DNA of 21,968 nucleotides from a bacterium (GCA_041946805.1 JBHGBC010000098.1:1-21968), one strand, 5' to 3'. Shown: positions 4,725-21,968, numbered from the stretch's first letter. A program made the numbers and translations. Notes: generated by a model not told the origin, from the sequence alone.

Positions 4725-4780
4725 ATTAAAGTACAAGAGAAAGCAGGGCCGAGTTCTGTTTGTTGGACGGGAGCATCCAT

Positions 4781-6031
4781 ATGCCAACGTATTCGTATAA
4801 AGCGCTGGACAAGGGCGGGAGAGAAATCAAGGGATCGATCGAGGCCACGGGCGAGGAGGCGGTCGTCGAGCGGTTGCGCAGCATGGGGTATTACGTCACC
4901 CAGGTGAGCCGCTCGCGGGCGGGAGTCGGCCAGGTCGACATCATGGACATGCCGATCGTCCGGGGATTCCAGAAACTCATTTCCCGCGGGAAAGTCAAAC
5001 TCAAGCACATCTCCGCCTTTTCCCGGCAGTTGGCCACGCTGATCGGCGCGGGCCTGCCGCTATTGCGCAGCCTCCAGATTTTACAAGAGCAAGTGGAAGA
5101 CAAAAACCTGAAGGAAGCGGTGATCGGCATCACGGAATCGGTCGAAGGCGGCAGCACGCTTTCGGAGGCGATGGCCAAATATCCCAAGATCTTCAACCGC
5201 CTCTACGTCAACATGATCAAGGCGGGCGAGATCGGTGGCGCGCTCGAGCAGGTTTTGGACCGTCTGGCCCTCTTCCAGGAAAAGGCGCAGGCCGTGCGCT
5301 CGAAGGTCAAGGGGGCGATGTGGTACCCCGCGGTGGTTATCACCATCGCCATGACGGTCGTGACCATCATTTTGATCTTCGTGGTACCCAAGTTCGCCGA
5401 CATGTTCAAGGGGCTGGGTTCGGAACTGCCCTGGCTCACCCAGAAACTGGTGGACTTCAGCGACAACCTAGTGATTTACTGGTACATTCCCGCGTTGATC
5501 ATTGTCGCCATCATCGTGCTCTTGAAATTGACCGCCAAATCCAGCCAAGGGCGCTACATTCTGGACCGGATCAAACTGCGGATGCCGGTCTTCGGCGGCA
5601 TTATTCAGAAATCCGCCATCGCCCGGTTCGCCCGGACCTTCGGAACGCTGCTGGATACGGGCGTTCCCATCCTCCAGACCCTGCTCATTGTCAAGGACAC
5701 GTCCGGCAACGAGGTGATCTCGCGCGCGATGGTGGACATCCACGCCTCCATCCGCGACGGCGACACGGTTTCGGAGCCGATGAAAAACTTCTCCATCTTC
5801 CCGCCGCTGGTCGTGCACATGATCGCCGTCGGGGAGGAAACCGGCGCGCTGGACAAGATGCTGATCAAGGTGGCGGAAGCGTACGAACGCGAGGTGGATG
5901 ACGCCGTCGACGGCTTGGCGAAGCTGATCGAGCCGCTGCTCATCGTGATGCTGGGCGGCATCATCGGAACCGTCGTCGTCGCCTTGTACCTGCCGATCTT
6001 CAGCATCACCAACGCGATGGGCAAAAAATAG
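4781..6031 (+). CDS. pilC: Type IV pilus / type II secretion inner-membrane platform protein (PilC/GspF family)
   Basis: MPTYSYKALD start; FSRQLATLIGAGLPL, MIKAGEIGGAL, FARTFGTLLDTGVPIL, MIAVGEETGALDKML and LIEPLLIVMLG...ALYLPIF motifs. Confidence 0.93.
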   Translation: MPTYSYKALDKGGREIKGSIEATGEEAVVERLRSMGYYVTQVSRSRAGVGQVDIMDMPIVRGFQKLISRGKVKLKHISAFSRQLATLIGAGLPLLRSLQILQEQVEDKNLKEAVIGITESVEGGSTLSEAMAKYPKIFNRLYVNMIKAGEIGGALEQVLDRLALFQEKAQAVRSKVKGAMWYPAVVITIAMTVVTIILIFVVPKFADMFKGLGSELPWLTQKLVDFSDNLVIYWYIPALIIVAIIVLLKLTAKSSQGRYILDRIKLRMPVFGGIIQKSAIARFARTFGTLLDTGVPILQTLLIVKDTSGNEVISRAMVDIHASIRDGDTVSEPMKNFSIFPPLVVHMIAVGEETGALDKMLIKVAEAYEREVDDAVDGLAKLIEPLLIVMLGGIIGTVVVALYLPIFSITNAMGKK

Positions 6032-9088: not shown

Positions 9089-9250
9089 ATGAAACGAACC
9101 TATCAACCCAGTAACATCAAGCGGATACGGACACATGGCTTTCGGGCCCGGATGAAAACGCGCGGCGGCCGCGATGTGCTGCGCCGCCGCCGGTTCAAGG
9201 GGAGACACTGCTTGACGGTGTCGGAATCCATGGGTTTGAAGATGCTGTAA
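9089..9250 (+). CDS. rpmH: 50S ribosomal protein L34 (53 aa)
   Basis: Translated by hand (below the ORF-track cutoff): [53 protein letters not shown]; lies directly upstream of rnpA. Confidence 0.97.
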
Positions 9251-9354
9251 AGCGGATCGTACCCGGGAGTCGGCCTGCGCCGGGCGCGCCGTGGACTATG
9301 CTTGTGCGCGCCGGGATGGGCGGATAGTAATGGGATCCGGCGGAAGCGACGATT

Positions 9355-9705
9355 TTGGATGAACGGTTTCGCCCAACGGAGCACTTGCGTAAGAAAACCG
9401 AGATCACAGCGGTTTTACGGCAGCCCGGCCGTCAGGGGACGTATTGCGTCCTGCATGTGCTTCCCTGCGGCCGGCCTTATTCCCGGTTGGGATTGGTTGT
9501 GAGCCGGGCGGCGGGTCCGGCGGTGTCGCGCAATCGGGCCAAGCGGCGGATCCGCGAAATTTTCCGCCGCGTGAAAGGCCGTTTTACCCGGACGGCCGAC
9601 CTGGTTATCCGGGCCAGGCGGACGATCAGCGAAGCGACCTACGGGCAACTGGCGGCCGACATCACCGGTTTAATGATACGGGAACATCTTTTGGAAAAGC
9701 AGTGA
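9355..9705 (+). CDS. rnpA: Ribonuclease P protein component
   Basis: RLGLVVSR and AVSRNRAKRRIRE (RNR motif), DLVIRAR; TTG start bounded by an in-frame TAA at 9328-9330; synteny. Confidence 0.95.
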   Translation: MDERFRPTEHLRKKTEITAVLRQPGRQGTYCVLHVLPCGRPYSRLGLVVSRAAGPAVSRNRAKRRIREIFRRVKGRFTRTADLVIRARRTISEATYGQLAADITGLMIREHLLEKQ

Positions 9706-9783
9706 GCCTGCCATCCATAAAGGGATTATTCCGGAGGATGTTTACCTCATCCGGCCGGAGTGGAAGCGGGCGGCGGAGAAAAC

Positions 9784-10059
9784 GTGGCGGAAAGCACGCG
9801 CGGATTGTGTTCCATGCCGGCGCGGGTGGTGATGGCCTTCCTGCGAGGCTATCACCGCTGGATCTCTCCCTATTTACTTCCGGCGTGCCGGTTTTATCCC
9901 ACCTGTTCCGTTTACGCGGTGGAAGCGATTGGCTCCCATGGATTGATCAAAGGGGGATATCTCGCTCTCAAACGGTTGATGAAATGTCATCCCTTCCACC
10001 CGGGCGGCGTGGATTTCCCGCCGAAGCCTTCCGCGGAGAAGGACCGGCCCCGGCCGTAA
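9784..10059 (+). CDS. yidD: Membrane protein insertion efficiency factor YidD
   Basis: ISP...[15 protein letters not shown]...[15 protein letters not shown]; start uncertain (9760, 9784 or 9814). Confidence 0.93.
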
Positions 10060-10089
10060 CGGCTGTTCATTCATGCATGTGGCGGTTTC

Positions 10090-12009
10090 ATGGATACAGA
10101 AAAACGACTGGCTTTATGCTTCGCGTTGTCCATGCTGATCATCCTGGCGTTCAGCTGGTTTAACGCCCAAAAACTGTCCGAACAACGGAAAGCCCAGGAG
10201 ACGTCCGCTCCCGCCGAAGTCCAGGGGACCGCCGGTGAGATCATTTCCGGAGCCACGGCCGGCGCCACGCCTTTTCCGGAACGGGAGGAGCCGGCGGCGC
10301 GGCCGGGAGAGGCCACCGCGGCGGTTTCATCATGGGGATGGCTTCCCTGGCAGGCGGAGGGGGGAGCCGCTCGGGAGGTGGTCGTCGAAAGCGGCCTGTA
10401 CCGCGTGACGTTCAGCACCCGCGGCGCCGTGCCAGTATCCTGGCAACTGATCCAGTATCCGGAATTGCTTTCCGACCCGCGTTATCTCCGCCTGCAAAGC
10501 ACCCGCGGCCCGGTGTACCTGCAGCAAAAAGCCCAGTTGGAACTAAGCCGCCTCGAAGCGCACGGGGACGGCAAGCCTCATTACGTGGATGCGATCGATC
10601 CCCATTTCGAGCCGGGCGAGGTGGGCCTCGTGATCCGGTGGGGCCGGGCGGGGACGGACGCGTCGTTGCTGTATGACGCGCCGTCGGATCATTACACGGT
10701 CACGGATCCGGCGGGAACCGAAGTGCGGTTCAGCCTGGAATCAAAGGGGGTGAGACTGGAGAAAATCTATCGATTCTATCCCGGGAGTTATCATCTGGAT
10801 TTTGAAATCCGCATCGCCAATCAAAGCGGTCAACCGATACCTTATGATCAGGATGGATTTTATGACGTGGTCTGGTTGGGCGGATTCGGATTTCCTTCTT
10901 TCCGTTGGGATGCCCAAAACAGCATTTATATCCAGCAGGAAGGATCGATTCTCACCGAACCGGCCACGTCCCTGCTGACGGAGTTGCAAAACGCGGGTAC
11001 GCCGTATCTGCGTGAATACGGTCCGGAATCTCCCACTCAGTTGTTGACCGGAAAACCGGCCGGCTGGGCGGGGGTGGGCGAGAAATATTTTCTGGCCGCC
11101 CTGGTTCCCCACACCCCCACGCGTCTGGCGCTGAAGGGGGTCTCATTCCCGAAGAAAAGCGAAGCCCAGGCCATCTACAAGCCGCACGCGGGGGTCCGCA
11201 TGACGATGGCGCCCATTCTGAATGGGGCCGTGTATTCAGACAAATACACTGTGTATGTCGGCTCCATGGACGAAGACAGCCTGGCGAAAGCCCAGGCGGG
11301 ATTGGAGGATGCGCGCCAGATTTTCCTGCGCCGGATCGTCGGCCCCATCGCCAATCTGATGCTGCGGTTTCTGCAGGGACTGTACGCCATCGTCCCCAAC
11401 TACGGGGTGGTGATCATTTTGCTGACCGTGATCATCAAACTGCTGATGCTGCCCATGTATCACAAGCAGATCCGCTCGATGAAAAAAATGCAGGCGTTGC
11501 AGCCCCAGATCAACGACCTCAAAAACCGGTACAAGGACGATCCCCAGAAGCTGCAAAAAGAGCAGATGGAACTGTTCAAAAAGCACAAGGTCAATCCCCT
11601 CTCGGGGTGCCTGATGATGCTTACCACGGTTCCCATATTCATCGCCTTGTACGCCACCTTCGCCATGGCGGTGGAGCTGCGGGGAGCACCGTTCGTCGGC
11701 TGGATTCGCGACTTGTCCGCGCCTGACGGAGCGTTTTTCCTCCCCCTCGGTTCGACCATCTTCACCGTAAACATTCTGCCCATCGCCTATTCGGTGCTGA
11801 TGCTGTGGAGTTCCAGCCAGCAGAAGGTGGAAGGCCCCAATGCGGCGATGATGAAAATCTTCCCCCTGATTTTCGTCTTCTTCTTCTGGTCGATCGCCTC
11901 GGGGGTCATATTGTATTTCGTCATCAGCATTTTCATCGACGTCGTCCAACGCTTAGCAATGGAGAAATTCAGCCCGGATCCGGTTCCCGCGGGCGGGAAA
12001 GACAAATAA
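10090..12009 (+). CDS. yidC: Membrane protein insertase YidC
   Basis: N-terminal TM, large periplasmic domain, NYGVVIILLTVIIKLL, SMKKMQALQP, KVNPLSGCL, ELRGAPFVGWIRDLSAPD and SGVILY motifs. Confidence 0.97.
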   Translation: MDTEKRLALCFALSMLIILAFSWFNAQKLSEQRKAQETSAPAEVQGTAGEIISGATAGATPFPEREEPAARPGEATAAVSSWGWLPWQAEGGAAREVVVESGLYRVTFSTRGAVPVSWQLIQYPELLSDPRYLRLQSTRGPVYLQQKAQLELSRLEAHGDGKPHYVDAIDPHFEPGEVGLVIRWGRAGTDASLLYDAPSDHYTVTDPAGTEVRFSLESKGVRLEKIYRFYPGSYHLDFEIRIANQSGQPIPYDQDGFYDVVWLGGFGFPSFRWDAQNSIYIQQEGSILTEPATSLLTELQNAGTPYLREYGPESPTQLLTGKPAGWAGVGEKYFLAALVPHTPTRLALKGVSFPKKSEAQAIYKPHAGVRMTMAPILNGAVYSDKYTVYVGSMDEDSLAKAQAGLEDARQIFLRRIVGPIANLMLRFLQGLYAIVPNYGVVIILLTVIIKLLMLPMYHKQIRSMKKMQALQPQINDLKNRYKDDPQKLQKEQMELFKKHKVNPLSGCLMMLTTVPIFIALYATFAMAVELRGAPFVGWIRDLSAPDGAFFLPLGSTIFTVNILPIAYSVLMLWSSSQQKVEGPNAAMMKIFPLIFVFFFWSIASGVILYFVISIFIDVVQRLAMEKFSPDPVPAGGKDK

Positions 12010-12141
12010 ACACCCCTTTCGCGGCGTTTTCCCGCGACTGAACGTTACCCGGCCGCCCGCCACGATCCCCTCCGCCGCCATCACGCGGCGCGGGCACGGC
12101 CGGGCGCCTGGACCGCATCCGGGTCAGATGGAGGAAACCCT

Positions 12142-12978
12142 ATGAAAGAAGTGATCGGTAAAGGCAAATCATTGGACCTGGCGACCGAGGACGCCTTAAA
12201 ACAACTCAACGCGGAACGGCAGGAGGTGGAAGTGGAACCCCTGGCGACCGGCTCGCGCGGCTTTTTGGGCATCGGCGCCCGGCCGGCCCAGGTGCGGGTG
12301 ACCTTGCGCCCGGACAACCGCATCCGCACTAACGTGTTCCTGCGCAACATCCTCGGGCACATGGGCATCACCACTTCCGTGCAAATCCAGGAGGAGGGCG
12401 AGACCATCACCATCACCCTGGGCGAGGAGGCGGCCACGCTCATTGGCCATCGCGGCCAGACGCTGGATTCCCTGCAATACCTGATCGCCCGGTACCTCAA
12501 CGAAGACAAGGAAGAATGGCGTAAGGTGGTGGTGGACATCGACAACTACCGCGACCGGCGGGAAGAGAACCTCAAGGCCATGGCCGAGCGCATGGCCGAG
12601 CAGGTCATCCGCAGCAAGCGGGACCTGCGGACCGAACCACTCACCGCGCCCGAACGGCGGATCATTCACATGACGCTGAAGGAAAACGCCGCCGTAACCA
12701 CGTTCAGCGTGGGCGAGGGAATGCGCAAGCGAGTGGTCATCACTTCCGCCGAGAAGTCGTCCGAATCGCCGCGCCGGTACAATCCACGCCGGGGCGGGCG
12801 GGGTGGCGGTCAGTCGGGCGAACGGCGTCCGGGAGGCGGGCGCGGGCCGGGGGGCGGTGGACGCCGGAGCGGCCAGCCCGAGGGACGAAGCAATTCCGTC
12901 AACCGCCGGGGCGGACGGAGCCGCCGGGGTGGAGGCGAGGGCCGCCGTTCCGAGCCAAGGCCGCAGAGCGAGGCTTAG
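12142..12978 (+). CDS. jag: RNA-binding protein Jag/EloR/KhpB (Jag_N, KH, R3H) with an R/G-rich tail
   Basis: GKSLDLA...GFLGIG (Jag_N), LIGHRGQTLDSLQYL (KH GxxG), ERRIIH (R3H); follows yidC. Confidence 0.94.
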   Translation: MKEVIGKGKSLDLATEDALKQLNAERQEVEVEPLATGSRGFLGIGARPAQVRVTLRPDNRIRTNVFLRNILGHMGITTSVQIQEEGETITITLGEEAATLIGHRGQTLDSLQYLIARYLNEDKEEWRKVVVDIDNYRDRREENLKAMAERMAEQVIRSKRDLRTEPLTAPERRIIHMTLKENAAVTTFSVGEGMRKRVVITSAEKSSESPRRYNPRRGGRGGGQSGERRPGGGRGPGGGGRRSGQPEGRSNSVNRRGGRSRRGGGEGRRSEPRPQSEA

Positions 12979-13008
12979 CCGGCCGGGAATCGTAGCAACT
13001 TTCCGTAT

Positions 13009-13051
13009 TCCGGGCGCGGGATGAGGTCCTGTACCGCGCCCGGATTTTTTT
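13009..13051 (+). terminator. Rho-independent terminator of the rpmH-jag operon
   Basis: TCCGGGCGCGG (13009-13019) pairs with CCGCGCCCGGA (13034-13044), followed by T7. Confidence 0.85.
13034..13050 (+). repeat. 17-bp direct repeat, left copy (CCGCGCCCGGATTTTTT)
   Basis: Identical to 13962-13978; the two copies bracket the PIN toxin-antitoxin pair. Confidence 0.8.
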
Positions 13052-13134
13052 CTTTCCTTACCTGCAACAACACTATATAGTATTACTGGGGGGTGATTGC
13101 TGAAACAAGGAAATGGAAGGCTGGAGGTTTTCTC

Positions 13135-13395
13135 ATGGTACCGGAACTTACGATTCAGGAAAAATTGGATTATTTAGTCAAAACGACCGGCCTGGGGACG
13201 AGGGATGTAATCGCGGATGCATTGGAACAAGGTATAACTGAACTCTACCGGCGTCAGATCAAATCCGCCTATTTGAATGATGCCATTAACCGCAACGAAG
13301 CCCTGGACCGGCTGGGGGAGGAATTCGTGGCCGAGATCGATTACGCACGGGAATCCATAAAACGCGACGTACTTTGGGGGCTGCGGCGTGAATAA
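13135..13395 (+). CDS. Small helical protein, putative antitoxin of the downstream PIN gene
   Basis: GGAGG RBS before ATG 13135; 86 aa; overlaps the start of the PIN gene by 8 nt; near-palindrome AACACTATATAGTATT at 13069-13084 upstream. Confidence 0.65.
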   Translation: MVPELTIQEKLDYLVKTTGLGTRDVIADALEQGITELYRRQIKSAYLNDAINRNEALDRLGEEFVAEIDYARESIKRDVLWGLRRE

Positions 13396-13890
13396 TGTGG
13401 CCTTAGCTGATACAGGACCCTTGCTTCATCTGGTGGAAATTCAACAAGAGTCATTACTTTCCATTTTTCCGATCGTGTACGTCACAACGGAAATCGAAGC
13501 GGAACTGCTCCGCCTCGGTGTGCTCGCGCTGATTCGGAAAGTACTCTCCTCCAATCTGCATATTATGCAATTGGCTTCTCATGTCCTCCCTGTACATTCC
13601 CAAGAAGGAAATACAATGCGATTACCACCGGCGGATCGGAGTGTGATAATTCTGGCAAACCAAATCAAACCAGATATCCTTTTATGCGATGATCTGTTTC
13701 TCCGGCGTATTTGGAAACCATAGGTTATCAGGCAACCGGTAGTGTAGGGATTTTGATACGAGCCTTCCAGATGCAATCTATTTCCAAACCAGAACTTCAG
13801 ACACACCTGAACCGTCTTTTTAATGTCAGCAGTCTGTATCTCAGCCGGGAGTTTTTCACATACGTGTGCGGCATGGTGGAGAATCTGTGA
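13388..13890 (+). pseudogene. PIN-domain (DUF3368/COG2405-like) nuclease, frameshifted near 13709
   Basis: ALADTGPLLHL, ADRSVIILA and LLCDDLFLRR in the first frame (stop 13723). The expected C-terminus LETIGYQATGSVGILIRAFQ...SLYLSREFF...VENL* continues in another frame to TGA 13890. Confidence 0.8.
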
Positions 13891-13961
13891 GAATACAGTA
13901 TTGTCTTAAATTCACCAATTTTTATTGCTGCTGTATGAATTCGGTGATGTCTCAGGCGGTT

Positions 13962-13978
13962 CCGCGCCCGGATTTTTT
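13962..13978 (+). repeat. 17-bp direct repeat, right copy
   Basis: CCGCGCCCGGATTTTTT; this copy lacks the upstream complementary arm present at the left copy. Confidence 0.8.
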
Positions 13979-14114
13979 ATGGCGGAGCGGAATCCGCGTC
14001 TCGCGGGAATACCGTTTTCCCGGCCCGATGCCCCCCGTGGGTTCTGAAAACTACTTCCTTTGGGACGCGCAGGCGTAGTACAATTAGAATGGACAAGAGG
14101 GGGAGATCGCGATC

Positions 14115-14429
14115 ATGCTCATGCTCATTGTTCTTGTCTTTGTCCATGTGAAGCCGGATTGTATCGAATCCTTCAAATCCGCCAGCATCGAAAACGCGCG
14201 GAACAGCCTTCGCGAAGCGGGGATTGCCCGGTTCGATGTGATCCAGCAATCCGATGATCCCGCCCGGTTTGTGCTCGTGGAGGTCTACCGCGATCCGGAC
14301 GCGCCCGCCCGGCATAAGGCATCCGCCCATTACCAGGTCTGGCGGGATGCCGTGGAACCGATGATGGCGGAGCCTCGCCAGAGCGTAAAGTTCCAGCCGG
14401 TTTTTCCCGATGATGAGGGGTGGAAATAA
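14115..14429 (+). CDS. Antibiotic biosynthesis monooxygenase (ABM; LsrG/YgiN-like) family protein
   Basis: VHVKP...[22 protein letters not shown] and [14 protein letters not shown] motifs; GAGGGGGAG RBS. Confidence 0.88.
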
Positions 14430-14480
14430 GAGTGCGGCCGGTATAGCCGGCGGAGTGGGGCGTCCCGTGAGCGGGGAGGA

Positions 14481-14537
14481 AGAAGTGACGTCATTTCTCT
14501 ATTCCCATTGACAAATCAAATTTTAATTTGCCATAAT
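14481..14537 (+). promoter_or_regulatory. Sigma70 promoter with two operator-like palindromes
   Basis: TTGACA (14508-14513), 18 nt spacer, TG-c-CATAAT (-10 at 14532-14537); palindromes AGAAGTGACGTCATTTCT (14481-14498) and CAAATCAAA-T-TTTAATTTG (14512-14530). Confidence 0.55.
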
Positions 14538-14626
14538 AAATGCGATTGAGGTCAGCCATGGAATTCCTGGGGCGGTTCGGTTGACGAAACCGATCTTAGG
14601 GCACGGAGTATAACAAGGAGCGGCCG

Positions 14627-15577
14627 ATGGGTTTGGAATCATCCTTTCAGGAATCCTTGCAAAAAACCCTCTTCTCCGAGTACGTCCGTAAACATCCCGA
14701 TGTGGACCAGGACCAACTGGCCGCCCGGTATGTCAACGGCCGGATCGCGATCGACACCATCGCCAACATTTTCCAAGACGCGCAGGTGCGGCGCAAATTC
14801 GTCGAAGTCCAGAAATCCCAAAAAAAGGTGTTCGCGCAGCATCTGGAGGAATTTCTCTGTGTGGACGAAAATGAGCGGCACGCGGCCTGCTTGAAGTCGG
14901 TCAAACATTCCAGCCGGATCATTGATTATTTGTTCCAATCCCGCTATGCCGGATTCGATCTGATCAAAAAAACGGAGCACTTGACCTACTTACGGAAAAA
15001 GGAGCGGATTTGCGTTACCAACGCCAAGGACATCATCGAAAGCAAACGGAAACTGGCGAATCTCGTGGAGTGCCAGGACCGCAAAACGTCGTTGATCCAA
15101 ACCCTGATCGGAGAATATCTGGAGGCGTCGCTCAACCAGCTCAAGAGCCAGGTCTCGGTTCTGGAGCGTGAGATCGATCTGGGAAATCAATATTCGAATT
15201 ATGTAAAGAAATTTCTGCAGGACAACATGGAGAATCTCTCCCATCACCTGGAACCGAAATACGTCAAGGCGATCGCCAAGATTCATGCCATCTTGGCGCA
15301 GAAGGAGATCGACATCCTGAATATCGCCAAGATCACCCCCGGCCAGTTGAACGAGACGTTGAACCAGTTCACCAGTCAGTTGGATGACAAATTCGAAAAA
15401 CTGGACGCGCTCAAAAACGTCATCACCATCGTGGAATCGGTGGTGGAAAAAATTCGGCAGAAACAAGCCGCCGTTCCGGAAGATCGATCTTCCAAAGAAG
15501 ACGCGCCGGAATCGGGTGAACGCGGACGCCGGATGGTCTTCGCCACCAAGATCCTCCACAAATTCAAGTCCCGCTGA
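14627..15577 (+). CDS. Hypothetical cytoplasmic protein, alpha-helical/coiled-coil
   Basis: AAGGAG RBS; 316 aa rich in K/E/Q/L with heptad-like stretches; codon usage like the core genes; no family recognised. Confidence 0.8.
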   Translation: MGLESSFQESLQKTLFSEYVRKHPDVDQDQLAARYVNGRIAIDTIANIFQDAQVRRKFVEVQKSQKKVFAQHLEEFLCVDENERHAACLKSVKHSSRIIDYLFQSRYAGFDLIKKTEHLTYLRKKERICVTNAKDIIESKRKLANLVECQDRKTSLIQTLIGEYLEASLNQLKSQVSVLEREIDLGNQYSNYVKKFLQDNMENLSHHLEPKYVKAIAKIHAILAQKEIDILNIAKITPGQLNETLNQFTSQLDDKFEKLDALKNVITIVESVVEKIRQKQAAVPEDRSSKEDAPESGERGRRMVFATKILHKFKSR

Positions 15578-15611
15578 GTGGTTGCGGCTCGCGAGGTCCT
15601 TCTCCCCCGGC

Positions 15612-15839
15612 GCGCGGGGTGAAATGAATGAGGATAGTGATTTGGATTTATTAGTGATCATGCCGGATGGAACCCATCGGCGAAGAACGGCAGGAACCTT
15701 GTATATGAAATTATCGGATGTCCCTGTACCTATTGATTTTACCGTGTCCACAGAATCAGACTTGCGAAAACATGGGGAGAATTAAAGCCTGATTTATTAT
15801 CCCGCCCTGAGAGAGGGAATAGAGATTTATGCGACCTAA
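15612..15839 (+). pseudogene. Minimal nucleotidyltransferase (MNT) antitoxin remnant
   Basis: ARGEMNEDSDLDLLVIM...VPIDFTVST.SDLRKHGEN*SLIYYPALREGIEIYAT*. The N-terminal LFGS part is missing and there is an internal TAA at 15783-15785. Confidence 0.75.
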
Positions 15840-15912
15840 TTTTGGAAGTCCGGAACACGGGTTACTTTATGCCAAAAGCGACTTGGCTATGGCCAGTCCA
15901 CCCCATTCATGA
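15829..15912 (+). pseudogene. N-terminal fragment of a HEPN-domain gene
   Basis: MRPNFGSPEHGLLYAKSDLAMASPPHS* overlaps the MNT stop and resembles the HEPN N-terminal helix (WLxxAxxDLxxA); truncated next to the convergent GH89 stop. Confidence 0.55.
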
Positions 15913-15931
15913 TTCTCCATTCTCTTCGCTT

Positions 15932-18142
15932 CTATTTCCAAATTTTCCCGTGATACTTCTCGAACATATTCCGGGCGATCGCCACGGTGTCGCCTTTGGG
16001 GGCGGCGGGATAGGCCTCGGTTTTCCGGGTCCATTGTTCCTCCAGCCGCTGTAAATCATCGAGGAGCGCTGCTTCATCCAGCGGCTTGTCTTCCAGTAAG
16101 GATTGACGCAGCCGGTCGAAGAACAATTGCCAGCTGGGCCAGTATAATTCGGTCAGCAGGCCGGACCATTCCTTGCCGGCGTAATCGTGAATACTGGATT
16201 TCCGGTCTCCCCATGAAGTGAGGATATTGCGGGCGTTCCATTCGAAAAGGCGCTTTTCCGTGTCGTTCGCTCCCCAGCGTTTGGCGTCTTCCAGCCACGC
16301 GCCCAGCAGGAATTCCGGCCGGGAGGCCAGCAGTTGATCCAGGTCACGGATCAGGTCCACCCATTCGCGCGATGCGGACTCCAGGGCTTTGGAATCCTTG
16401 GCCTGATAGGCGGCCATGATTTTCGCGTGCAGTCCCCGGGTGAGGTTGGCGAGCGCCTGCCGGGTGACATTCGCCAGATCGTAGCGATACGTGTCAACAG
16501 CGCCTAACGCATCGGCGCATTGGAGCAAATGTTCCCAGGCCTGTTCAAACGAAGCCCGGTCGTAAGGCCAGTCCGGGTTCGACTCCCTGCCGAGGCTGGG
16601 GCGGGTGATCAGGAGAGAGTTGCCAAATGTCCCGCTATAGGCAGTTTTCAATAACAATTGCCATGCTTCCCGGGCTTCTGGAACCGGGCGGCCGTAGCGG
16701 CGAATCGCGTATTGGCTGATCCACTCATCCAGGTTGACCGGCCCGGAGCGCCAGATCATTTCGGACATCAGATCGAAGACCACGGGATTGTAATCCAATC
16801 CCTCGTGGATGATCCCGATGCCCGACAACCTTCCGTGTTGGGGATCCTTCATCGCGGCCCAGAGATCGTCGTTGATCTTGGCCAGCGGGCCGCTCAGGCG
16901 AACGGTATTCCCGAAGCTGGGCAGGATACACCAAACCCAGGGCTTGCCGTAAAAGGCTTCCGTCTGGTTCCAGACCGGCGCGACATCGCAAAAAAGGTCG
17001 AGCAGGATCATGCGGTCGTTGGGCACGCCGCCCAGAAACGCCCGGGATTGCGGAGGCTGCCAGAACTTGGCGTTGTTATAGAAGATCCATCCCTGCATCA
17101 CCCAAAGGGCTTGCGGATCGGCCGCGGTCATGGTCTCGGACAACGAGCGGCCCATGTCGCGCAGGAAGGCAGGATCGTTGCTGGGCGGCGACATTTCGAT
17201 GAAGGTGTCCGCCGCGTAGAGATGATCGGTCCCCAGTTCCCGGTTCTGGATGTCCAGATAGAGTTTCCCCACGCGTTGAAACAATGGGTCAAGAGGATCC
17301 ACAAAAAAGGTCTCCCACTCGATCCAGCGGATTGAGTGCAGTTTGGCATCGGGGAATTTTTTCTGGACCGCTGGGGGGACATGGCCGGTGAAGCCCTGCA
17401 GCACCGGGGTCATGCCCAGTTCCCGTTCGCGCGCCAGGATCTTCTTCTGCAGATCCAGGTGCGCGTCGATCCAGCCTTGGGGCAGGGGGCCTCCCCACCC
17501 ATCCAGGCATCCCATCCAGCCGAAGGGCAGGTAGGGAGGACCGGCCAGGAATTCGGTGACGGCTTTCCCGGATAGGCCCAGTTCGCTGAGCACTTTTTGC
17601 CAGATGGCCTCCTGCCCGGTCACCGCCAGGGGCATGTTGTATCCGTTCAGCGCCAGCCAGTCGATCATCCGTTCCCACTGCGCCCAGTCCCACCAAGGCA
17701 AGGAATAACCGAAGCAGCAATAGTTGAAAAAGTAGCGGTACTGGTGCGGGGTAACCTGGCGGATTTTGTTTTCCACCACGGGTAACTGATCAGGCAGGTT
17801 GATTTGCATGCCGTTCCAAGTCACATCGGCGTGGCCGTAGTTTTTCAAGTACCAGTTCAGCGCCGAGCAAATTGCCACGCCGTTTGTTCCACGCAATACG
17901 ATCCGGCCGTCCCGGCTTTCGATTTCGAACGCGTCCCGCCCGTTGTCCGGGGGAATCGCCTCGAACACGAATTGTCCGGCTTTTTCGGGGATGAGCCGCG
18001 CGAGCACGCCCTGGGCCGCCTGGATGGAGGCGGCCGCGGACGGATTCGAGGCGGCCGCGCCCAGGGATGGGGCGGGGCTAAAAATCAATCCGGCGGTAAG
18101 AAGAAAGCCAACGAGCCGAATGGAAATTGATATGTGGATCAT
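15932..18142 (-). CDS. Secreted alpha-N-acetylglucosaminidase (GH89, NAGLU family)
   Basis: YRYFFNYCCFGYS, WERMIDWLALNGYNMPLA, WMGCLDGWGGPLP, RELGMTPVLQGFTGHVP, DTFIE and IHEG (positions of the two catalytic Glu), HDYAGKEWSGL. ATG 18142 has a GGAG RBS and gives a signal peptide; the 18418 start in the track looks over-extended. Confidence 0.93.
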   Translation of the reverse strand: MIHISISIRLVGFLLTAGLIFSPAPSLGAAASNPSAAASIQAAQGVLARLIPEKAGQFVFEAIPPDNGRDAFEIESRDGRIVLRGTNGVAICSALNWYLKNYGHADVTWNGMQINLPDQLPVVENKIRQVTPHQYRYFFNYCCFGYSLPWWDWAQWERMIDWLALNGYNMPLAVTGQEAIWQKVLSELGLSGKAVTEFLAGPPYLPFGWMGCLDGWGGPLPQGWIDAHLDLQKKILARERELGMTPVLQGFTGHVPPAVQKKFPDAKLHSIRWIEWETFFVDPLDPLFQRVGKLYLDIQNRELGTDHLYAADTFIEMSPPSNDPAFLRDMGRSLSETMTAADPQALWVMQGWIFYNNAKFWQPPQSRAFLGGVPNDRMILLDLFCDVAPVWNQTEAFYGKPWVWCILPSFGNTVRLSGPLAKINDDLWAAMKDPQHGRLSGIGIIHEGLDYNPVVFDLMSEMIWRSGPVNLDEWISQYAIRRYGRPVPEAREAWQLLLKTAYSGTFGNSLLITRPSLGRESNPDWPYDRASFEQAWEHLLQCADALGAVDTYRYDLANVTRQALANLTRGLHAKIMAAYQAKDSKALESASREWVDLIRDLDQLLASRPEFLLGAWLEDAKRWGANDTEKRLFEWNARNILTSWGDRKSSIHDYAGKEWSGLLTELYWPSWQLFFDRLRQSLLEDKPLDEAALLDDLQRLEEQWTRKTEAYPAAPKGDTVAIARNMFEKYHGKIWK

Positions 18143-18217
18143 GACCGGTCTCCAGGATCGAGGATGATCGTTCATCTTACGAAATCGCGCAGGAGAGTGG
18201 AACGGGAGTAGACTCGG

Positions 18218-18400
18218 ATGGCTGCTTTCATCAATTCCGGCGCCGGTTGGGATTTGTCCTGTATAACTCCCATTTGGTTCCGGCTGGTGACCTGGCAGTT
18301 CCTGTTTCTCCAGGTGGCTGGGGATGACGTTTATGTGGCGGATGGCCTGAAGGCGGCCAAAGAGGGCCGGAAGAGGCCGGGTGTGAAAAAACTGCACCAG
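18218..18400 (+). mobile_element. Short remnant of a DDE transposase (IS701/IS4-superfamily-like)
   Basis: WDLSCITPIWFRLV...VAGDDVYVADGLKAAKEGRKRPGVKKLHQ matches a DG.K..KEG+KMP.VK.LHQ transposase segment recalled from memory; no IS ends seen. Confidence 0.55.
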
Positions 18401-18654
18401 CCGCCCGCGAACCACCATCCCGTCTTTTCACGTTCCCCCCTCTTTTGCCCGGCCATCCAGGCTTGAACTGCCCGTTGCGCCACTACCGTCCGGACTACAA
18501 ATCTTACAAATGACATAAAGAGGCCAAGTCTAAGTCTTTATAGATATGCGCTCTATGGATTGATATATGAATAATAATGATAGATTATGTAATGTATAAT
18601 CTATTTTGTTGCAGATATACTGTAACTTTTTTTCACTTATTCTCATTTTTCCTA

Positions 18655-18684
18655 TTGACAAGACCGGTAAACCAGTGCTAATAT
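18655..18684 (+). promoter_or_regulatory. Candidate sigma70 promoter in a very AT-rich intergenic tract (~18530-18780)
   Basis: TTGACA, 18 nt spacer, TG-c-TAATAT. Confidence 0.45.
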
Positions 18685-18911
18685 TGGCTTTATTTAATTT
18701 CGTATATTTAAATAATTTTTGTTTATAATTATTATATACAAAGTCATATTTACAGACGAGCGTTGGATTGAATGTTTTAGTGAGTCACCGATGATTGATG
18801 AATTTCTTCGTTTGTTGATACGTTAACGAGACTTCGTATCACTCCGTCTTTCCCTGTTATCCGTATCTTGCACTGCTTTCCTATGGGTTGATGGCGAGTA
18901 GGGATGTTCCA

Positions 18912-19901
18912 ATGACTCGCATCCTTGGGAGAGGAAGGTGGATCCGCTACTCACCACGGCCGTGGGCGGCCGTGCTGGGTTTTCTCCTTCTTTTCCCGGC
19001 GGCGGGGCGGGTGCAAGAAATCACCGCCCCGTTGCCCCCAATCCCTGAAATGCGTCCCATCGAATTCGGCCTGAACCTCTCCACCCTGATCCTGGAAGAA
19101 ACCGGCACCGAGGGCGAATACCTTTCGCCGGAGACCGCCTCGTTCCGCCTGCTCAGCTGGATCGACGATTGGCGGGTCTCGTGCGTGGCCGAAGCGGCGG
19201 TTGGTCCGGAGGGAGAGACCATCCCGCCAACCCATTTTTACCTGCTCGGGGGCGCCAACGGCGCTTCCGCCAGCCTGGAGCAGCCGGTGGTGATCGCGGA
19301 AGGGGGGCCGTTGGAGGGCAAGCCGGTCGACGCCGCCTCTTTCCGGCTCTGCGCGCGGATCGATCCCCTGCAGCCGGCAGGCGAATACCGGGGAACCCTT
19401 CTGTTCTATATCGAGACCGGGCGGAAGGGCACGGTGATCACCGGCCCGTCGTTGCCCTTCATGTTTCAATGCCGCGAGTTCATCAAGGTGTGGGTGAGCG
19501 AGGACATGGCATTCGGGACCTGCCAGCCGGGGATCAACCAGCCGCGGGACCATATATCCCAGACCACGCCCAAGGTGACGGTGCTCACCAACCGCCGGGG
19601 CGTGAAAGTCCACGCCGAGATGACCGACCTGAGTTACGAAGAGGGACCCGGCGGCGGGGGCGGCCCGATCACCGGCTCGCAACTGGCGCTGGCCTACGGC
19701 GAAACCCCGGGTTTGGCGCGCGGCAACGCGGCTTCCGCCCCCTTGGGAGGAACGGCGATCGACTGGTACCCCTACCCGCGCTCGGGCGCTTGGCCCTTTT
19801 GCGACCGTTCGATTTACCTCGGCGGCAAGGTGAGCATCGACCTGCACAACTCCGCCGGATTTTACCGGGGCGTGATCTACGTGACGTGCGAGGCGGAATG
19901 A
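18912..19901 (+). CDS. Secreted two-domain beta-rich protein, putative pilus tip/minor subunit
   Basis: Signal-like N-terminus (WAAVLGFLLLFPAAG). Both halves end in a pilin-type terminal strand: IDPLQPAGEYRGTLLFYI and IDLHNSAGFYRGVIYVTC. Start uncertain (18888, 18891 or 18912). Confidence 0.6.
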   Translation: MTRILGRGRWIRYSPRPWAAVLGFLLLFPAAGRVQEITAPLPPIPEMRPIEFGLNLSTLILEETGTEGEYLSPETASFRLLSWIDDWRVSCVAEAAVGPEGETIPPTHFYLLGGANGASASLEQPVVIAEGGPLEGKPVDAASFRLCARIDPLQPAGEYRGTLLFYIETGRKGTVITGPSLPFMFQCREFIKVWVSEDMAFGTCQPGINQPRDHISQTTPKVTVLTNRRGVKVHAEMTDLSYEEGPGGGGGPITGSQLALAYGETPGLARGNAASAPLGGTAIDWYPYPRSGAWPFCDRSIYLGGKVSIDLHNSAGFYRGVIYVTCEAE

Positions 19902-19903
19902 TT

Positions 19904-20193
19904 CCAGGGGCAAAATGCCAGGGGCGAAGTGCCAGGGGCGGTGCCCCTGGCTAAGCTAAGGCCACCCCTTCGGGGTTCAAAAAATGAAATGAAGCCCTGG
20001 AAGGGCGCATTCTGATTAGCCAGGGGTAAAACCCCTGGCGAGGAGGAATGCCAAGGATTTTGAGGCCAGGGGTTGTACCCCTGGCTAACCTTGGGTCACC
20101 CCTCCGGGGTTCAAAAAATGAAATGAAGCCCTGGAAGGGCGCTTTCTGATTAGCCAGGGGCATCGCCCCTGGCGGGAGGAACGCCAAGGATTT
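19904..20193. repeat. REP/BIME-like palindromic array: two ~130-bp tandem units (19931-20060, 20065-20193) plus two partial CCAGGGGC copies
   Basis: Each unit has GCCAGGGG-N-CCCCTGGC twice, ACCCC-N3-GGGGT, TCAAAAAATGAAATGAA and GCCCTGGAAGGGC; period 133-134 nt. Confidence 0.85.
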
Positions 20194-20564
20194 GCAAGTC
20201 AGGAGAATCGCCCCGGGCGGAGGCCCCCTCCGGGGGATAAATACCAATGCCGTTTCCGGACCGTTGTTGCGCCGGGTAGGAAAATCGTTGGGAGCCGGTT
20301 GCAAGGGACGAACGTCCCCAAAGGTCCCGCTCCAGGAAAAAGGTCCAAAACCTGGGATGTTCCATGCGGAGCATCCGAACCATAGTCCGTTCCCCCGAAG
20401 ACCGGGGAACGATGCCGTTCGATCGCTCGAACACCGGACCTTATTTCTTGGAACTTGAAAACACGGGACTTGGGAAGAATTCGACCTGGAGCCCGCGAAG
20501 GGGAATACCCGTGGATCAAAGGAACAGGAAAGCGGTGAAAGGAGGTGAAAACGATACCCGAGAC

Positions 20565-20603
20565 AAAAAAACCGCCCGGAGAAAGGCTAGTTTCCCCGGA
20601 CGG
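20565..20603 (-). terminator. Rho-independent terminator on the minus strand
   Basis: Minus strand reads CCGTCCGGGGAAA-CTAGCC-TTTCTCCGGGCGG-T7. The two non-Watson-Crick positions are G-U on the minus strand but A-C on the plus strand. Confidence 0.75.
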
Positions 20604-20661
20604 CCGGCCGTGAGGCCAAGGCTCCGGAGGGCGCTGGTCGCGGACCCCATCCGAAGGCCTG

Positions 20662-20670
20662 TGCTACATT
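20662..20670 (+). promoter_or_regulatory. Candidate extended -10 promoter for the riboswitch-pilin transcript
   Basis: TG-c-TACATT, predicting +1 near 20677; lies within the inverted repeat GTGCT-N7-AGCAC (20661-20677); no good -35. Confidence 0.45.
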
Positions 20671-20713
20671 GAAGCACGAATCGCGTTCCGCGGCAACCAA
20701 GAAGTAATGCGAA

Positions 20714-20789
20714 CGTGGAGGCGACGATCCGCCGTCCCGAATGTGGTCATCTATGGGACGGCGGGGAGCCAGTGGTGAAACCGGCCGCG
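20714..20789 (+). ncRNA. Cyclic di-GMP-II riboswitch aptamer
   Basis: P1 CGTGG/CCGCG; unpaired A20719; P2 GGC/GCC; tandem GA/GA kink-turn (20726-27, 20766-67); P3 CCGCCGTCCC/GGGACGGCGG; loop TGGTCATC can pseudoknot with GGTGA-A-ACCG. The 3' segment GAGCCAGTGGTGAAACCGGCC fits the class II pattern GAGYYAGTRGTGMAACCGRCY. Confidence 0.85.
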
Positions 20790-20814
20790 CAATCCATGCG
20801 AAAGGAACACGATC

Positions 20815-21309
20815 ATGAAATACTTCATTCCCATGTTCGCACTGCTGGCGTTGTTTGCCGCGCCGGTGATTGTTGCAGATGATACTTCGGTAGCAATTAA
20901 CCTTACTGTTGATGAGGTAATGTATGCATATTTTGGAGATGGATCTGATATGGCTGATGTTGTTTTGGAATTTGATCCTCAAACGGGTTTTAAAGATCCG
21001 TATTCGGGAACACATGCAGATATCGATTTAACTGCTAAAGCGTATGCGAATGAAAATTTGGCAGTGACTTTCACTCTAACTAAACCAGAGGGTTCATCAG
21101 CACCAGGAACATGGACACTTAGTGTTTATAAAGATTATGGATATGGTTCGGGTTCCTGGGTAGTAGGAAACCCTAGTACTCATTATCAACCTCTAGGAGA
21201 AGATGAAAGAAATTATTCAATTGCGGTAGATATTGATATTCCTTTAAACACTCCTGCTTTTGTGACTACAACAGCTGGTACTTTAGTTATTACTTTTGCT
21301 GGATATTAA
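20815..21309 (+). CDS. Secreted 164-aa beta-rich protein, putative major pilin of a chaperone-assembled pilus
   Basis: GAAAGGA RBS; Sec signal peptide; mature N-terminus DDTSVAINLTVDE has alternating hydrophobic residues (donor-strand-like); ends AGTLVITFAGY; no Cys; no type IV prepilin G/FxxxE motif. Confidence 0.65.
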   Translation: MKYFIPMFALLALFAAPVIVADDTSVAINLTVDEVMYAYFGDGSDMADVVLEFDPQTGFKDPYSGTHADIDLTAKAYANENLAVTFTLTKPEGSSAPGTWTLSVYKDYGYGSGSWVVGNPSTHYQPLGEDERNYSIAVDIDIPLNTPAFVTTTAGTLVITFAGY

Positions 21310-21341
21310 AATAAACGATAAATATCTTTTTTATGTTATTA

Positions 21342-21375
21342 ATATCCGGGAAATATTTTTCCGGATATCTTTTTT
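21342..21375 (+). terminator. Terminator/stabilising hairpin between the pilin-like and chaperone-like genes
   Basis: ATATCCGGGAAA-TAT-TTTTCCGGATAT followed by C and T6. Confidence 0.65.
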
Positions 21376-21405
21376 AAGAGTTATCATAAATAGGTAATGA
21401 TAGAT

Positions 21406-21968
21406 ATGAAAAATAATTATATATACATTATAGTCTTTTATCTATTTGCTGTAATTGATTTTCCTCTACCTGTATATAGTCAAGGTTTTTTAATAAAACC
21501 GTTGAAAATCCATTGTTATCCTTATCCTGGTAGAATCATTGAAGAAAAACTTGTAATAAGAAATATATTATCGAATAAAAACATTATTGTTGATCTTAAT
21601 GTCAGTGATTTAACTCAAAATGATGAAGGTGCTTGGAAAATAATTGATTCCAATAATTCACCAGATAACAAATATTTATATTCGTGTAAAGACTGGATTT
21701 CATTAAATACGAATACCTTAGAAATCTCACCTTTAAACTCCGTTACGTTAAACATACGTATAAAAGTTCCTGCGAATAAATATGGATTTTATACAGCTTG
21801 TCTTCTTGCTCAAACAAGGAAAGAACCCAATGTAAAAGGCATTGCTGTTGTTATCAGATATCTGATTCCAATTTTAGTTGAAATTAAAGGTCCTGTTCTA
21901 AAAAAACAAATTGAAATAACAGATGCTAATATTAAAAATTTGGAATCTAATGATAAAATCAAATCAAA
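21406..21968 (+). CDS. Secreted Ig-fold protein, putative pilus assembly chaperone (PapD-like or DUF916-like); partial, runs off the window
   Basis: Not in the ORF track. Frame is open from ATG 21397/21406 to the end: MKNNYIYIIVFYLFAVIDFPLPVYSQGFLIKPLKIHC...PGRIIEEKLVIRN...SCKDWISLNTNTLEISPLNSVTLNIRIKVP...GFYTACLL...IRYLIPILVEIKG. Confidence 0.7.
   Translation, partial: MKNNYIYIIVFYLFAVIDFPLPVYSQGFLIKPLKIHCYPYPGRIIEEKLVIRNILSNKNIIVDLNVSDLTQNDEGAWKIIDSNNSPDNKYLYSCKDWISLNTNTLEISPLNSVTLNIRIKVPANKYGFYTACLLAQTRKEPNVKGIAVVIRYLIPILVEIKGPVLKKQIEITDANIKNLESNDKIKS

Follow-up and report, generated by a model that had tools for sequence, protein, structure and literature searches.

In the WxL/Elr pilus, a chaperone primes the WxL pilins by donor-strand complementation, and the system is reported to be restricted to Bacillota (bioRxiv 10.64898/2026.10.17.759780). 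According to the same source, the chaperone's strand pairs in parallel with the subunit's C-terminal strand, both in the chaperones of chaperone-usher systems and in ElrE (bioRxiv 10.64898/2026.10.17.759780). For the type IV pilus locus of Clostridioides difficile, another report places a class II cyclic di-GMP (c-di-GMP) riboswitch, Cdi2_4, upstream of the genes (bioRxiv 10.1101/2021.02.19.431970). Here we describe a stretch of bacterial DNA of 21,968 nucleotides (nt; GCA_041946805.1 JBHGBC010000098.1:1-21968), in the following called the window, which is an entire contig (C314) of a 6.7 Mb genome with 315 contigs, 96.8% completeness and 4.2% contamination. In the last 3 kb of the window, three co-oriented open reading frames (ORFs), designated P1, P2 and P3, encode beta-rich proteins with signal peptides; an earlier annotation of the same DNA (the original prediction) had proposed these three ORFs, and our ORF calls confirmed them. 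A class II c-di-GMP aptamer precedes P2.

We consider it probable that the window contains the first part of a gene cluster for a donor-strand fibre that is gated by c-di-GMP, assembled with the help of a chaperone and exported via a secretin and not via an usher; in this reading we infer that the subunits polymerise, that a secretin is linked to the cluster in this genome and in which direction the switch works. A more general proposal is attractive, although we would not yet count on it: an undescribed chaperone-secretin pathway of diderm bacteria, in which a doubled PapD/WxLIP-like chaperone primes subunits with an incomplete immunoglobulin (Ig) fold and the fibre leaves the cell via a stand-alone secretin and a small lipoprotein, without usher, ATPase or platform protein. 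A pathway of this type would give diderm bacteria the counterpart of the Gram-positive WxL/Elr pilus that has been missing and, in the host phylum, would be wired directly to c-di-GMP by class II riboswitches, single or in tandem. In the literature searched, no account of a cassette of this kind was found among the matches listed.

A predicted doubled chaperone and its candidate subunits

Because the window is the whole of contig C314, P3 is cut at the contig end; what is left of it comprises the signal peptide, the first Ig-like domain in full and the initial strand of the second domain. Full-length members of the P3 family comprise approximately 550-600 amino acids (aa), P3 itself presumably about 560 aa, and the fragment from the window aligns over their first domain and has the conserved columns of the family. 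In an alignment of 25 family members, the motifs SC..W, P....G.Y and R-[FY]-L-I-P, which correspond to those that the original prediction had named in the third ORF, form invariant or nearly invariant columns. Sub-threshold matches to PF06030 (WxLIP_PGBD, DUF916) at E <= 0.01 were obtained for 11 of 25 P3 relatives (best E 5.4e-5). With a profile of the P3 family, no match at E <= 1 was found among the PDB sequences, and relatives appear by fold comparison alone.

For this comparison we used the AF2 model of the P3 homologue from L012, the closest related locus, which belongs to another genus. The model was calculated from 25 sequences, reached a predicted local distance difference test score (pLDDT) of 85.5 and shows four beta-sandwich domains; it ends in beta strands, with no more than a 4-residue helix there (565-568). 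Residues 43-307 matched the WxLIP structure 9i1y_A in first rank (Z 15.2, root-mean-square deviation 5.0, 237 of 267 residues aligned), and the first half of the model also matched the WxL-bound form 9i25_C (Z 14.8), CsuC (residues 43-300, Z 11.7) and CfaA (Z 11.3). Residues 311-549 matched Caf1M (Z 13.0, 185 of 212 residues), SfaE (12.7), FimC (12.4) and PapD (11.5); YadV and SafB were further matches of this second module, all of them within Z 11.5-13. When Foldseek was run with the whole model, ciliary ASH/PapD-like proteins occupied the top rows, and a WxL-interacting protein of Enterococcus faecium appeared among Ig-repeat proteins. An arrangement of two tandem PapD-like chaperone modules in the full-length P3 homologue is thus well supported at the level of predicted structure. 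The fold matches, the sub-threshold similarity to PF06030 and the description of the Elr chaperone together lead us to read P3 as what looks like a soluble periplasmic relative of the WxLIP chaperones that is fused to a second module of the classical type. The original prediction had assigned a chaperone function to the third ORF, which agrees with the matches to WxLIP and Caf1M and with the complex model described below, but the chaperone appears to be doubled.

Modelling of a complex between pilin and chaperone had been set as a check of the original prediction. With P3 residues 29-190 (alignment of 22 rows) and mature P2 (residues 22-164) as input, three runs scored 0.65, 0.65 and 0.66, compared to 0.00, 0.02 and 0.00 in three controls. 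In the calibration of the tool, 116 of 157 solved complexes attained this mark, as did 2 of 215 mismatched pairs; these figures apply only roughly here because we supplied our own alignment. The runs agreed in at least 61% of contacts, and the pLDDT of the partners was at least 67. The confident interface is formed by residues 146-158 of P3 (VKGIAVVIRYLIP) and 151-163 of P2 (TTTAGTLVITFAG), with the lowest errors for the P3:P2 contacts 149:156, 151:157, 153:159 and 155:161. The predicted strands are parallel, because the residue numbers of the contacts rise together in both chains, and the predicted pairing has the geometry of donor-strand complementation. The most conserved motif of the P3 family, R-[FY]-L-I-P, lies next to, and in part within, the strand for which pairing with P2 is predicted.

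P2 consists of a signal peptide (residues 1-21) and a mature protein that begins with DDTSVAINLTV and has TTTAGTLVITFAG as its C-terminal strand. In terms of sequence it is an orphan, with itself as the single hit of a phmmer search over 1.84e9 representatives. The 22 small subunits, aligned at 15-25% identity, have in common a strand of alternating hydrophobic residues at the N-terminus, a single Asn that does not vary and a G.Y.G.h.h.h strand at the C-terminus; an AF2 model of P2 (pLDDT 72.4) was built on this alignment. The best Foldseek matches of this model were CfaB, FimG, the PapG pilin domain and CsuA/B (E 6.5e-5 to 3e-3, template modelling score (TM) ~0.4), and nearly all of the best matches were donor-strand pilins. 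Six matches had E <= 0.001, five of them CfaB chains and the sixth a chain of the FimD-usher type 1 pilus complex, while the lower rows contained the PapG pilin domain, FimG, CsuA/B, PapE, CS17, CS20, archaeal threads, bundling pili and TasA. WxL chains were not among the weak, low-scoring matches listed for the P2 model by Foldseek and VIA-align. The nearest named ESM Atlas clusters, SCPU, DUF4402, DUF1120 and Fimbrial, are a lead only, and 1 of the 22 small subunits has a weak DUF4402 match. From the models, a role of P2 as donor-strand subunit appears plausible, though weakly supported. The pilin of the original prediction is thereby retained in so far as Foldseek favours donor-strand pilins, with a similarity that stays weak (TM ~0.4, no Z >= 8).

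P1 comprises 329 aa from the ATG at 18912, or 337 aa from the opening of the ORF at 18888. The two AG.Y.G-hydrophobic strands noticed in the original prediction, PAGEYRGTLLFYIE and SAGFYRGVIYVTCEAE, close one domain each and are kept in both homologues that we found, which occupy the matching position in L011 and L012 only (27-31% identity, BLASTP E 1e-13 and 5e-20); DUF4402 is weakly matched by the homologue from L011 (E 0.0075). In two loci of the host phylum that are more distant, the position of P1 is occupied by proteins of 336 aa and 362 aa without detectable similarity to it (E 0.18 for the 336-aa protein in L013). The ESM Atlas model of P1 (pLDDT 0.75) has 344-aa two-domain SCPU proteins as nearest neighbours (TM 0.61-0.63). 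These neighbours are the sole basis for the tip subunit of the original prediction, and we treat P1 as a candidate tip or adhesin subunit in the sense of a lead. Paralogues of P1, P2 and P3 were not found in the genome, and a scan of the three proteins against NCBIfam returned no family.

Riboswitch aptamers and secretin genes in related loci

The aptamer upstream of P2 matched RF01786 over the full model (1-84 of 84) with 60.3 bits, compared to a gathering score of 53.5, and an E-value of 2.1e-11. The class II c-di-GMP aptamer of the original prediction was thus recovered, as the single Rfam family found in the whole window and the single RF01786 match in the 6.7 Mb genome. Since P1 lies upstream of the aptamer, beyond a spacer of ~800 nt, the riboswitch can govern only P2 and genes downstream of it; the original prediction had placed the system as a whole under riboswitch control, which fits P2 and the downstream genes and does not extend to P1.

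In each of the 6 loci found in the host phylum, the gene for the first small subunit is directly preceded by the aptamer, namely in the window, L011, L012 (three tandem copies), L013 (two tandem copies), L014 and contig C88 of genome G031, where it precedes a 250-aa subunit adjoining a P3 fragment. The copies in relatives scored below the cut-off with the Rfam model (39.4 bits in L012, 31.4 bits in L011), and at the gathering threshold RF01786 detected none in 20 related loci scanned; the copies of the host phylum were revealed by E-value thresholds or by R1, a covariance model built from five aptamer copies of the window, L011 and L012. L013 and L014 were left out of training and gave 58.9 and 51.7 bits (tandem copies of L013) and 56.4 bits (L014) with R1. 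Default filters hid tandem copies, and copy number was checked with filters off in the window, L012, L013 and L014. Among 35 genomes of the phylum, R1 matched in six, including all five that contain the P3 family. No aptamer was found in the 16 loci of other phyla (Rfam model at the gathering threshold, R1 at E <= 1 with default filters). Judged by this distribution of matches, the riboswitch is a lineage-specific addition.

The predicted aptamer structure is supported by compensatory changes. Among the five related aptamers, changes on both sides were counted in 7 of 22 pairs, and none of 500 shuffles attained as many; in the inner helix 87.5% of cells are paired, with lower values in slid controls, and 4 of 8 pairs changed on both sides. 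The helix called P1 in the aptamer is poorly aligned, with 40% of cells paired. In L013 and L014, the loop GGUCACG is changed to GGUCGCC jointly with a change of CGUGA to GGCGA, which suggests covariation in the pseudoknot. The distance from aptamer to AUG is 19 nt in the window, ~24 nt in L012, ~33 nt in L011 and ~38 nt in L013. Because such a short spacer leaves little room for a terminator, and none is present between aptamer and AUG, translational control is likelier and the riboswitch probably acts at translation initiation. By analogy with Cdi2_4, the type IV pilus switch of Clostridioides difficile, we guess that the ligand turns expression ON.

Head-to-tail arrays of aptamers were located at L012 8822-9077 (three copies), L013 11278-11450 (minus strand, two copies) and G017:C106:58402-58659 (minus strand, three copies). 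Genome G017 contains 21 aptamer matches, and several of these precede genes for other proteins with signal peptides, which have a length of 430-490 aa or above.

P3-family matches were obtained in 4 of 41 related genomes and in 5 of 35 genomes of the small host phylum. A collection of 5.8 billion clusters, in which the search was limited by a word index, contains at least 7 matching proteins, and a pattern scan of contigs with one genome per species yielded at least 16 loci as a lower bound, mostly from Planctomycetota, with one from a Desulfuromonadales metagenome-assembled genome (MAG) and one from the isolate Roseinatronobacter bogoriensis DSM 18756 (L030), whose locus has no aptamer. In all 20 related loci a secretin gene is located downstream of the P3 gene, with two intervening subunit genes in one of them, and in 19 of 20 loci it is followed by a gene for a lipoprotein of ~125 aa; the twentieth contig ends inside the secretin. 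The secretin of L011 matched PF00263 with E 8.7e-37 and additionally has N0, STN and Secretin_N domains. One to four genes for small secreted beta-rich proteins precede P3 in each locus, and in L030 they lie on both sides of P3. An usher (PF00577) was detected in none of the genomes G000, G017, G019 and G028, which are 82-97% complete. Likewise, none of 75 flanking ORFs from 11 loci matched a type II secretion system (T2SS) or type IV pilus (T4P) ATPase, a prepilin peptidase or a platform protein, and neither an usher nor PapD was matched; this set comprised ORFs of at least 180 aa, after removal of 40 of 115 that were P3, secretin, P1-like or subunit ORFs or, in some cases, overlapped these. 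The original prediction had noted that no usher was visible and had proposed a gene-neighbourhood survey of homologues and a search for an usher-like beta-barrel beyond the window. Small subunits, P3 and secretin indeed co-occur in the 20 loci and no usher was found in the four genomes, but the outer-membrane partner in the relatives is a secretin with a lipoprotein instead of an usher-like protein.

The flanks of the cluster vary between loci, and ClpB follows it in four. Large FG-GAP repeat proteins recur beside the clusters (L011 2056-5223; L013 2577-6407, minus strand; L036 17729-18982; L037 18001-19239), one of them with a VWA domain. Regulators are encoded nearby as well: L011 has a response regulator and an extracytoplasmic function (ECF) sigma factor, and both L013 and L027 have sigma-54 activators. 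In most loci of Planctomycetota (L023, L027-L029, L031-L037) the secretin has 1,137-1,283 aa, including an N-terminal extension of ~700 aa, while it has 449-572 aa in the host phylum, L024, L025, L026 and L030. The cluster of L012 (genome G017) seems to be disrupted at 11828-16270, with ~3.6 kb of other ORFs, one of them Thr/Pro-rich, between the chaperone gene and the secretin, and the secretin itself is split (15436-15849, 16026-16274, 16271-16828).

For a secretin-exported donor-strand fibre, we envisage the following sequence of events. As the family membership of the aptamer suggests, c-di-GMP would bind in the leader of P2 and gate production of the main subunit, which would then be exported by the Sec system with the help of its signal peptide. 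Once in the periplasm, P2 is predicted to receive strand 146-158 (VKGIAVVIRYLIP) from the first PapD-like module of P3, parallel to its own residues 151-163 (TTTAGTLVITFAG), a prediction that was accompanied by controls. The subunits may then polymerise by insertion of the N-terminal strand (DDTSVAINLTV...) into the next subunit, with P1, a two-domain relative presumably expressed from its own promoter, as possible tip or adhesin. By comparison with the related loci, the fibre could cross the outer membrane via the secretin of the cluster, assisted by the small lipoprotein, and the hairpin 3' of P2 might allow an excess of subunit over chaperone.

Contig layout and competing explanations

The positions of all features in the region are collected in Table 1.

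Table 1. Features at the 3' end of the window, with positions counted from its first nucleotide.
Feature	Position	Strand	Details
Sigma-70-like promoter match	18655..18684	+	TTGACA, 18 nt, TAATAT; TG before second hexamer; 10/12 hexamer positions
P1, secreted two-domain protein	18912..19901	+	ORF opens at 18888
Tandem pair of palindromic REP-like units	19931..20218	.	~134 nt each; in P1-P2 spacer
Class II c-di-GMP riboswitch aptamer	20708..20795	+	RF01786; 19 nt before P2 start codon
P2, secreted pilin-like subunit	20815..21309	+	164 aa
Hairpin and T-run 3' of P2, candidate partial terminator	21342..21376	+	Stem 21342-21368
P3, first 190 aa of tandem PapD-like/WxLIP-like chaperone	21397..21968	+	ORF 21397-21966, open at 3' end

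The promoter match at 18655 is a consensus match alone and sits in the AT-rich spacer upstream of P1 (G+C of 18501-19000, 0.374); the region contains 12 promoter-like sites, compared to 4.7 +/- 1.9 in shuffles. The hairpin 3' of P2 has 12 pairs (4 G-C) and is followed by CTTTTTT. The P1-P2 spacer is rich in repeats: the two repetitive extragenic palindromic (REP)-like units are 88% alike and produced 21 blastn rows distributed over 15 contigs, and 17 rows belong to the 14 contigs besides C314. Cores of ~50 nt of these units recur on the 14 other contigs. At the units in the spacer, contig depth spikes to 99 and Logan contigs break. Approximately 100 nt upstream of the aptamer, a strong terminator-like hairpin lies on the minus strand (20570-20605; 15 pairs, 8 G-C, then TTTTTGT), with no convincing minus-strand gene to its right. 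The rest of the contig is ordinary, with a T2SS-F-like gene at 4760-6031, YidC at 10090-12009, a Jag/KhpB-like gene at 12142-12978, a gene for a protein with a weak Gam match (E 1.4e-5) at 14627-15577 and an alpha-N-acetylglucosaminidase of the NAGLU family at 15932-18418 on the minus strand.

P1 and the aptamer have a G+C content of 0.66, the signal peptide region of P2 0.51, mature P2 0.375 and P3 0.27; the genome mean is 0.584. The drop from ~0.6 to ~0.3 occurs inside P2 directly after the signal peptide, and the trough extends over 20866-21968. L012 shows a similar course, with 0.54 in the P1 homologue, 0.39 and 0.35 in the subunits, 0.28 in the P3 homologue and 0.475 in the secretin fragment; there the trough is limited to the subunit and chaperone genes (9101-11827), and L011 has none. 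P1, the aptamer and, in L012, the secretin again have a G+C content like that of the host. A Logan contig of 1,940 nt, produced by a second assembler, covers 20113-21968 without differences at a depth of 13.5, compared to 16.3 in the adjoining part; as it comes from the probable source run, its independence is that of the assembler alone. A run from a different study contained two 151-nt pieces of the P3 gene (21605-21932) with 1 and 2 differences, and nothing of the GC-rich part within the examined range of 19800-21604. We take the junction inside P2 to be real, because the Logan contig spans it, the ORF is intact, relatives match on both sides and L012 has a trough as well.

A number of results weigh against a secretin-exported fibre cluster. 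At the level of sequence families, P3 scored 23.7 bits against PF06030 (E 5.4e-5), below the cut-off of 27.3; PF11797 (DUF3324) had no match in the genome or the P3 relatives scanned, and PF00345 (PapD_N) had none at E <= 0.01 in the genome, P3 or 25 relatives. For P2 and the 22 subunits, no Pfam family including WxL was detected at E <= 0.1 beyond chance-level rows. The fold evidence for P2 is weak (Z <= 7.4, TM ~0.4, pLDDT 72): a wide VIA-align search returned no chain with Z >= 8, and the best value of 7.4 is within the background stated for the tool. The score of the complex model may reflect a memory of solved chaperone-subunit complexes and would then speak for likeness and not for binding. 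The leader of P2 has no distinctive fold (z -1.61) and no marked alternative structure, and points to neither an ON nor an OFF switch. The hairpin and T-run after P2, read as a terminator in the original prediction, are present, but with 7 terminator-like sites compared to 5.0 +/- 2.2 in shuffles they do not exceed chance. As P3 is cut by the contig end and the rest of the cluster could be located neither among the other contigs of the genome nor in metagenome_contigs, the secretin link in this organism is extrapolated from relatives with ~30-36% identity: tblastn of the other 314 contigs with the P3, secretin and lipoprotein sequences of relatives detected only secretins at 23-27% identity, no lipoprotein and no C-terminus of P3, and in metagenome_contigs no relative of P3 from the window was found. 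Furthermore, we know of secretins otherwise only together with inner-membrane machines, and to our knowledge gating without such a machine is unexplained.

Polymerisation of the subunits is a further element that we infer, and without it the linkage and the chaperone evidence would fit equally well to a minimal secretin-based secretion system that makes no pilus. P3 would then be a periplasmic holdase or adaptor that maintains small beta-sandwich proteins (P2 and its relatives) in a state fit for export and hands them over to the secretin. The exported proteins could be released or remain at the cell surface in monomeric or small oligomeric form, and could serve, for instance, as adhesins or matrix proteins at high c-di-GMP. 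Secretins are conduits for folded proteins in the T2SS, loci differ in having between 1 and 4 subunit genes, and the match of P2 to pilins is weak. We regard a secretion system of this kind as rather unlikely, though it is the alternative that we take most seriously: the predicted parallel pairing and the N-terminal alternating-hydrophobic strand in the 22 subunits represent the two halves of donor-strand exchange, an incomplete Ig fold needs completion after departure of the chaperone, and the two-domain proteins of the P1 type resemble tip subunits in their predicted structure.

The likeness of P3 to chaperones could also stem from a shared Ig architecture, in which case P3 would be a structural multi-Ig protein of the secretin complex or the envelope and the small proteins would be unrelated partners. 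Tandem Ig-like domains are common, the top rows of the Foldseek search were proteins with ciliary ASH/PapD-like domains, P3 has no family membership at the sequence level, and we know of no other chaperone of such kind that is doubled to four domains. However, both halves align over the whole length of two-domain chaperones (237 of 267 residues with WxLIP, 185 of 212 with Caf1M, Z 13-15) with many pilus chaperones listed, and R-[FY]-L-I-P adjoins and partly overlaps the very strand predicted to pair with P2, which makes a purely structural role of P3 improbable. An assembly or binning artefact, with a foreign AT-rich tail from ~20870 and no true linkage between the riboswitch and the pilin and chaperone genes, might be suspected from the change in G+C from 0.66 (aptamer) to 0.27 (P3) within ~700 nt at the end of a contig, which is the lowest-GC contig end of the genome, from the 4.2% contamination of the MAG and from the failure to find the rest of the cluster in other contigs, but such a chimeric contig was considered and rejected as hardly credible, given that the 1,940-nt contig of the second assembler spans the junction with 0 differences at similar depth (13.5 vs 16.3), that the join lies inside the intact P2 ORF, in which signal peptide and mature N-terminus both match relatives, and that gene order, aptamer position and G+C trough are all alike in L012.

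Comparison with described fibre and secretion systems

If a donor-strand fibre is indeed exported via a secretin, secretins would be able to serve energy-independent, chaperone-driven assembly, which would widen their accepted role. The DUF916/WxLIP chaperone lineage, described as restricted to Bacillota in the report cited above, would have diderm relatives that are fused to a classical PapD-like module, with consequences for ideas on the origin of both chaperone-usher and WxL pili. A class II c-di-GMP riboswitch would control a donor-strand fibre, through 2-3 tandem aptamers in some relatives, and the cluster would offer a compact example, open to testing, of how a second messenger controls adhesion in soil phyla that are poorly known. 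With Roseinatronobacter bogoriensis DSM 18756 as a cultured carrier, the assembly pathway is accessible at the bench; its locus L030 lacks the aptamer, so that the riboswitch calls for tests of its own.

Compared to the Elr/WxL system of Enterococcus faecalis (ElrE; DUF916/DUF3324; PDB 9i1y and 9i25), the first two domains of P3 have a similar predicted fold (Z 15.2 and 14.8), the P3 family retains a sub-threshold similarity to PF06030, parallel pairing with the C-terminal strand of P2 is predicted, and the small subunits have an N-terminal amphipathic strand. In contrast to Elr/WxL, the hosts are diderm bacteria (the small phylum, Planctomycetota, one alphaproteobacterium and one Desulfuromonadales MAG), P3 has a predicted second PapD-like module where the Elr chaperone has a C-terminal membrane helix, the subunits match no Pfam family including WxL, and a secretin and a lipoprotein are linked. 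Membership in WxL/Elr was rejected on the grounds that PF06030 stayed below the cut-off, that PF11797 with a membrane helix was not found and that no WxL domain matched. Of the divergent pilus or WxL/DUF916-like surface fibre in the original prediction, the WxLIP-like fold is therefore preserved, whereas the membership features of the WxL/Elr system are missing.

The chaperone-usher systems (notably the archaic and alternative types Csu and CFA/I, and Caf1; PDB 6fq0, 4y2o and 4b0m), in which assembly needs no ATPase, resemble the cluster in the two-domain PapD-like fold predicted for both halves of P3 (Z 11-13), in the pilins CfaB, FimG, PapG pilin domain and CsuA/B as best Foldseek matches of P2, in the two-domain P1 with its SCPU neighbours in the ESM Atlas and in a hairpin 3' of the subunit gene. 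They differ in that no usher was detected in 4 of 4 genomes searched, no sequence match to PapD_N was obtained, two modules are present in one chaperone chain and the place of the usher in the operon is taken by a secretin and a lipoprotein. Although the fold agrees, we rejected a classical chaperone-usher system, as PapD_N was not matched and no usher was found in the 4 genomes or among the 75 flanking ORFs.

With the secretin machines (T2SS, type IV pili and Tad), the related loci share a secretin with Secretin, Secretin_N, N0 and STN domains and a lipoprotein gene that follows it; pilotin lipoprotein genes often follow secretin genes. Unlike in these machines, 0 of 75 flanking ORFs encode a T2SS/T4P ATPase, a platform protein or a prepilin peptidase, and the subunits have Sec signal peptides and beta-rich folds, not the helices of type IV pilins; the lone T2SS-F gene of the window is 13 kb away among unrelated genes. 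The riboswitch finally differs from Cdi2_4 in fibre type and phylum, in the 19 nt to the AUG without a terminator in between and in the 2-3 tandem aptamers of relatives. As in Cdi2_4, a class II aptamer appears to stand directly before the gene for the major fibre subunit and may thus tie fibre production to c-di-GMP.

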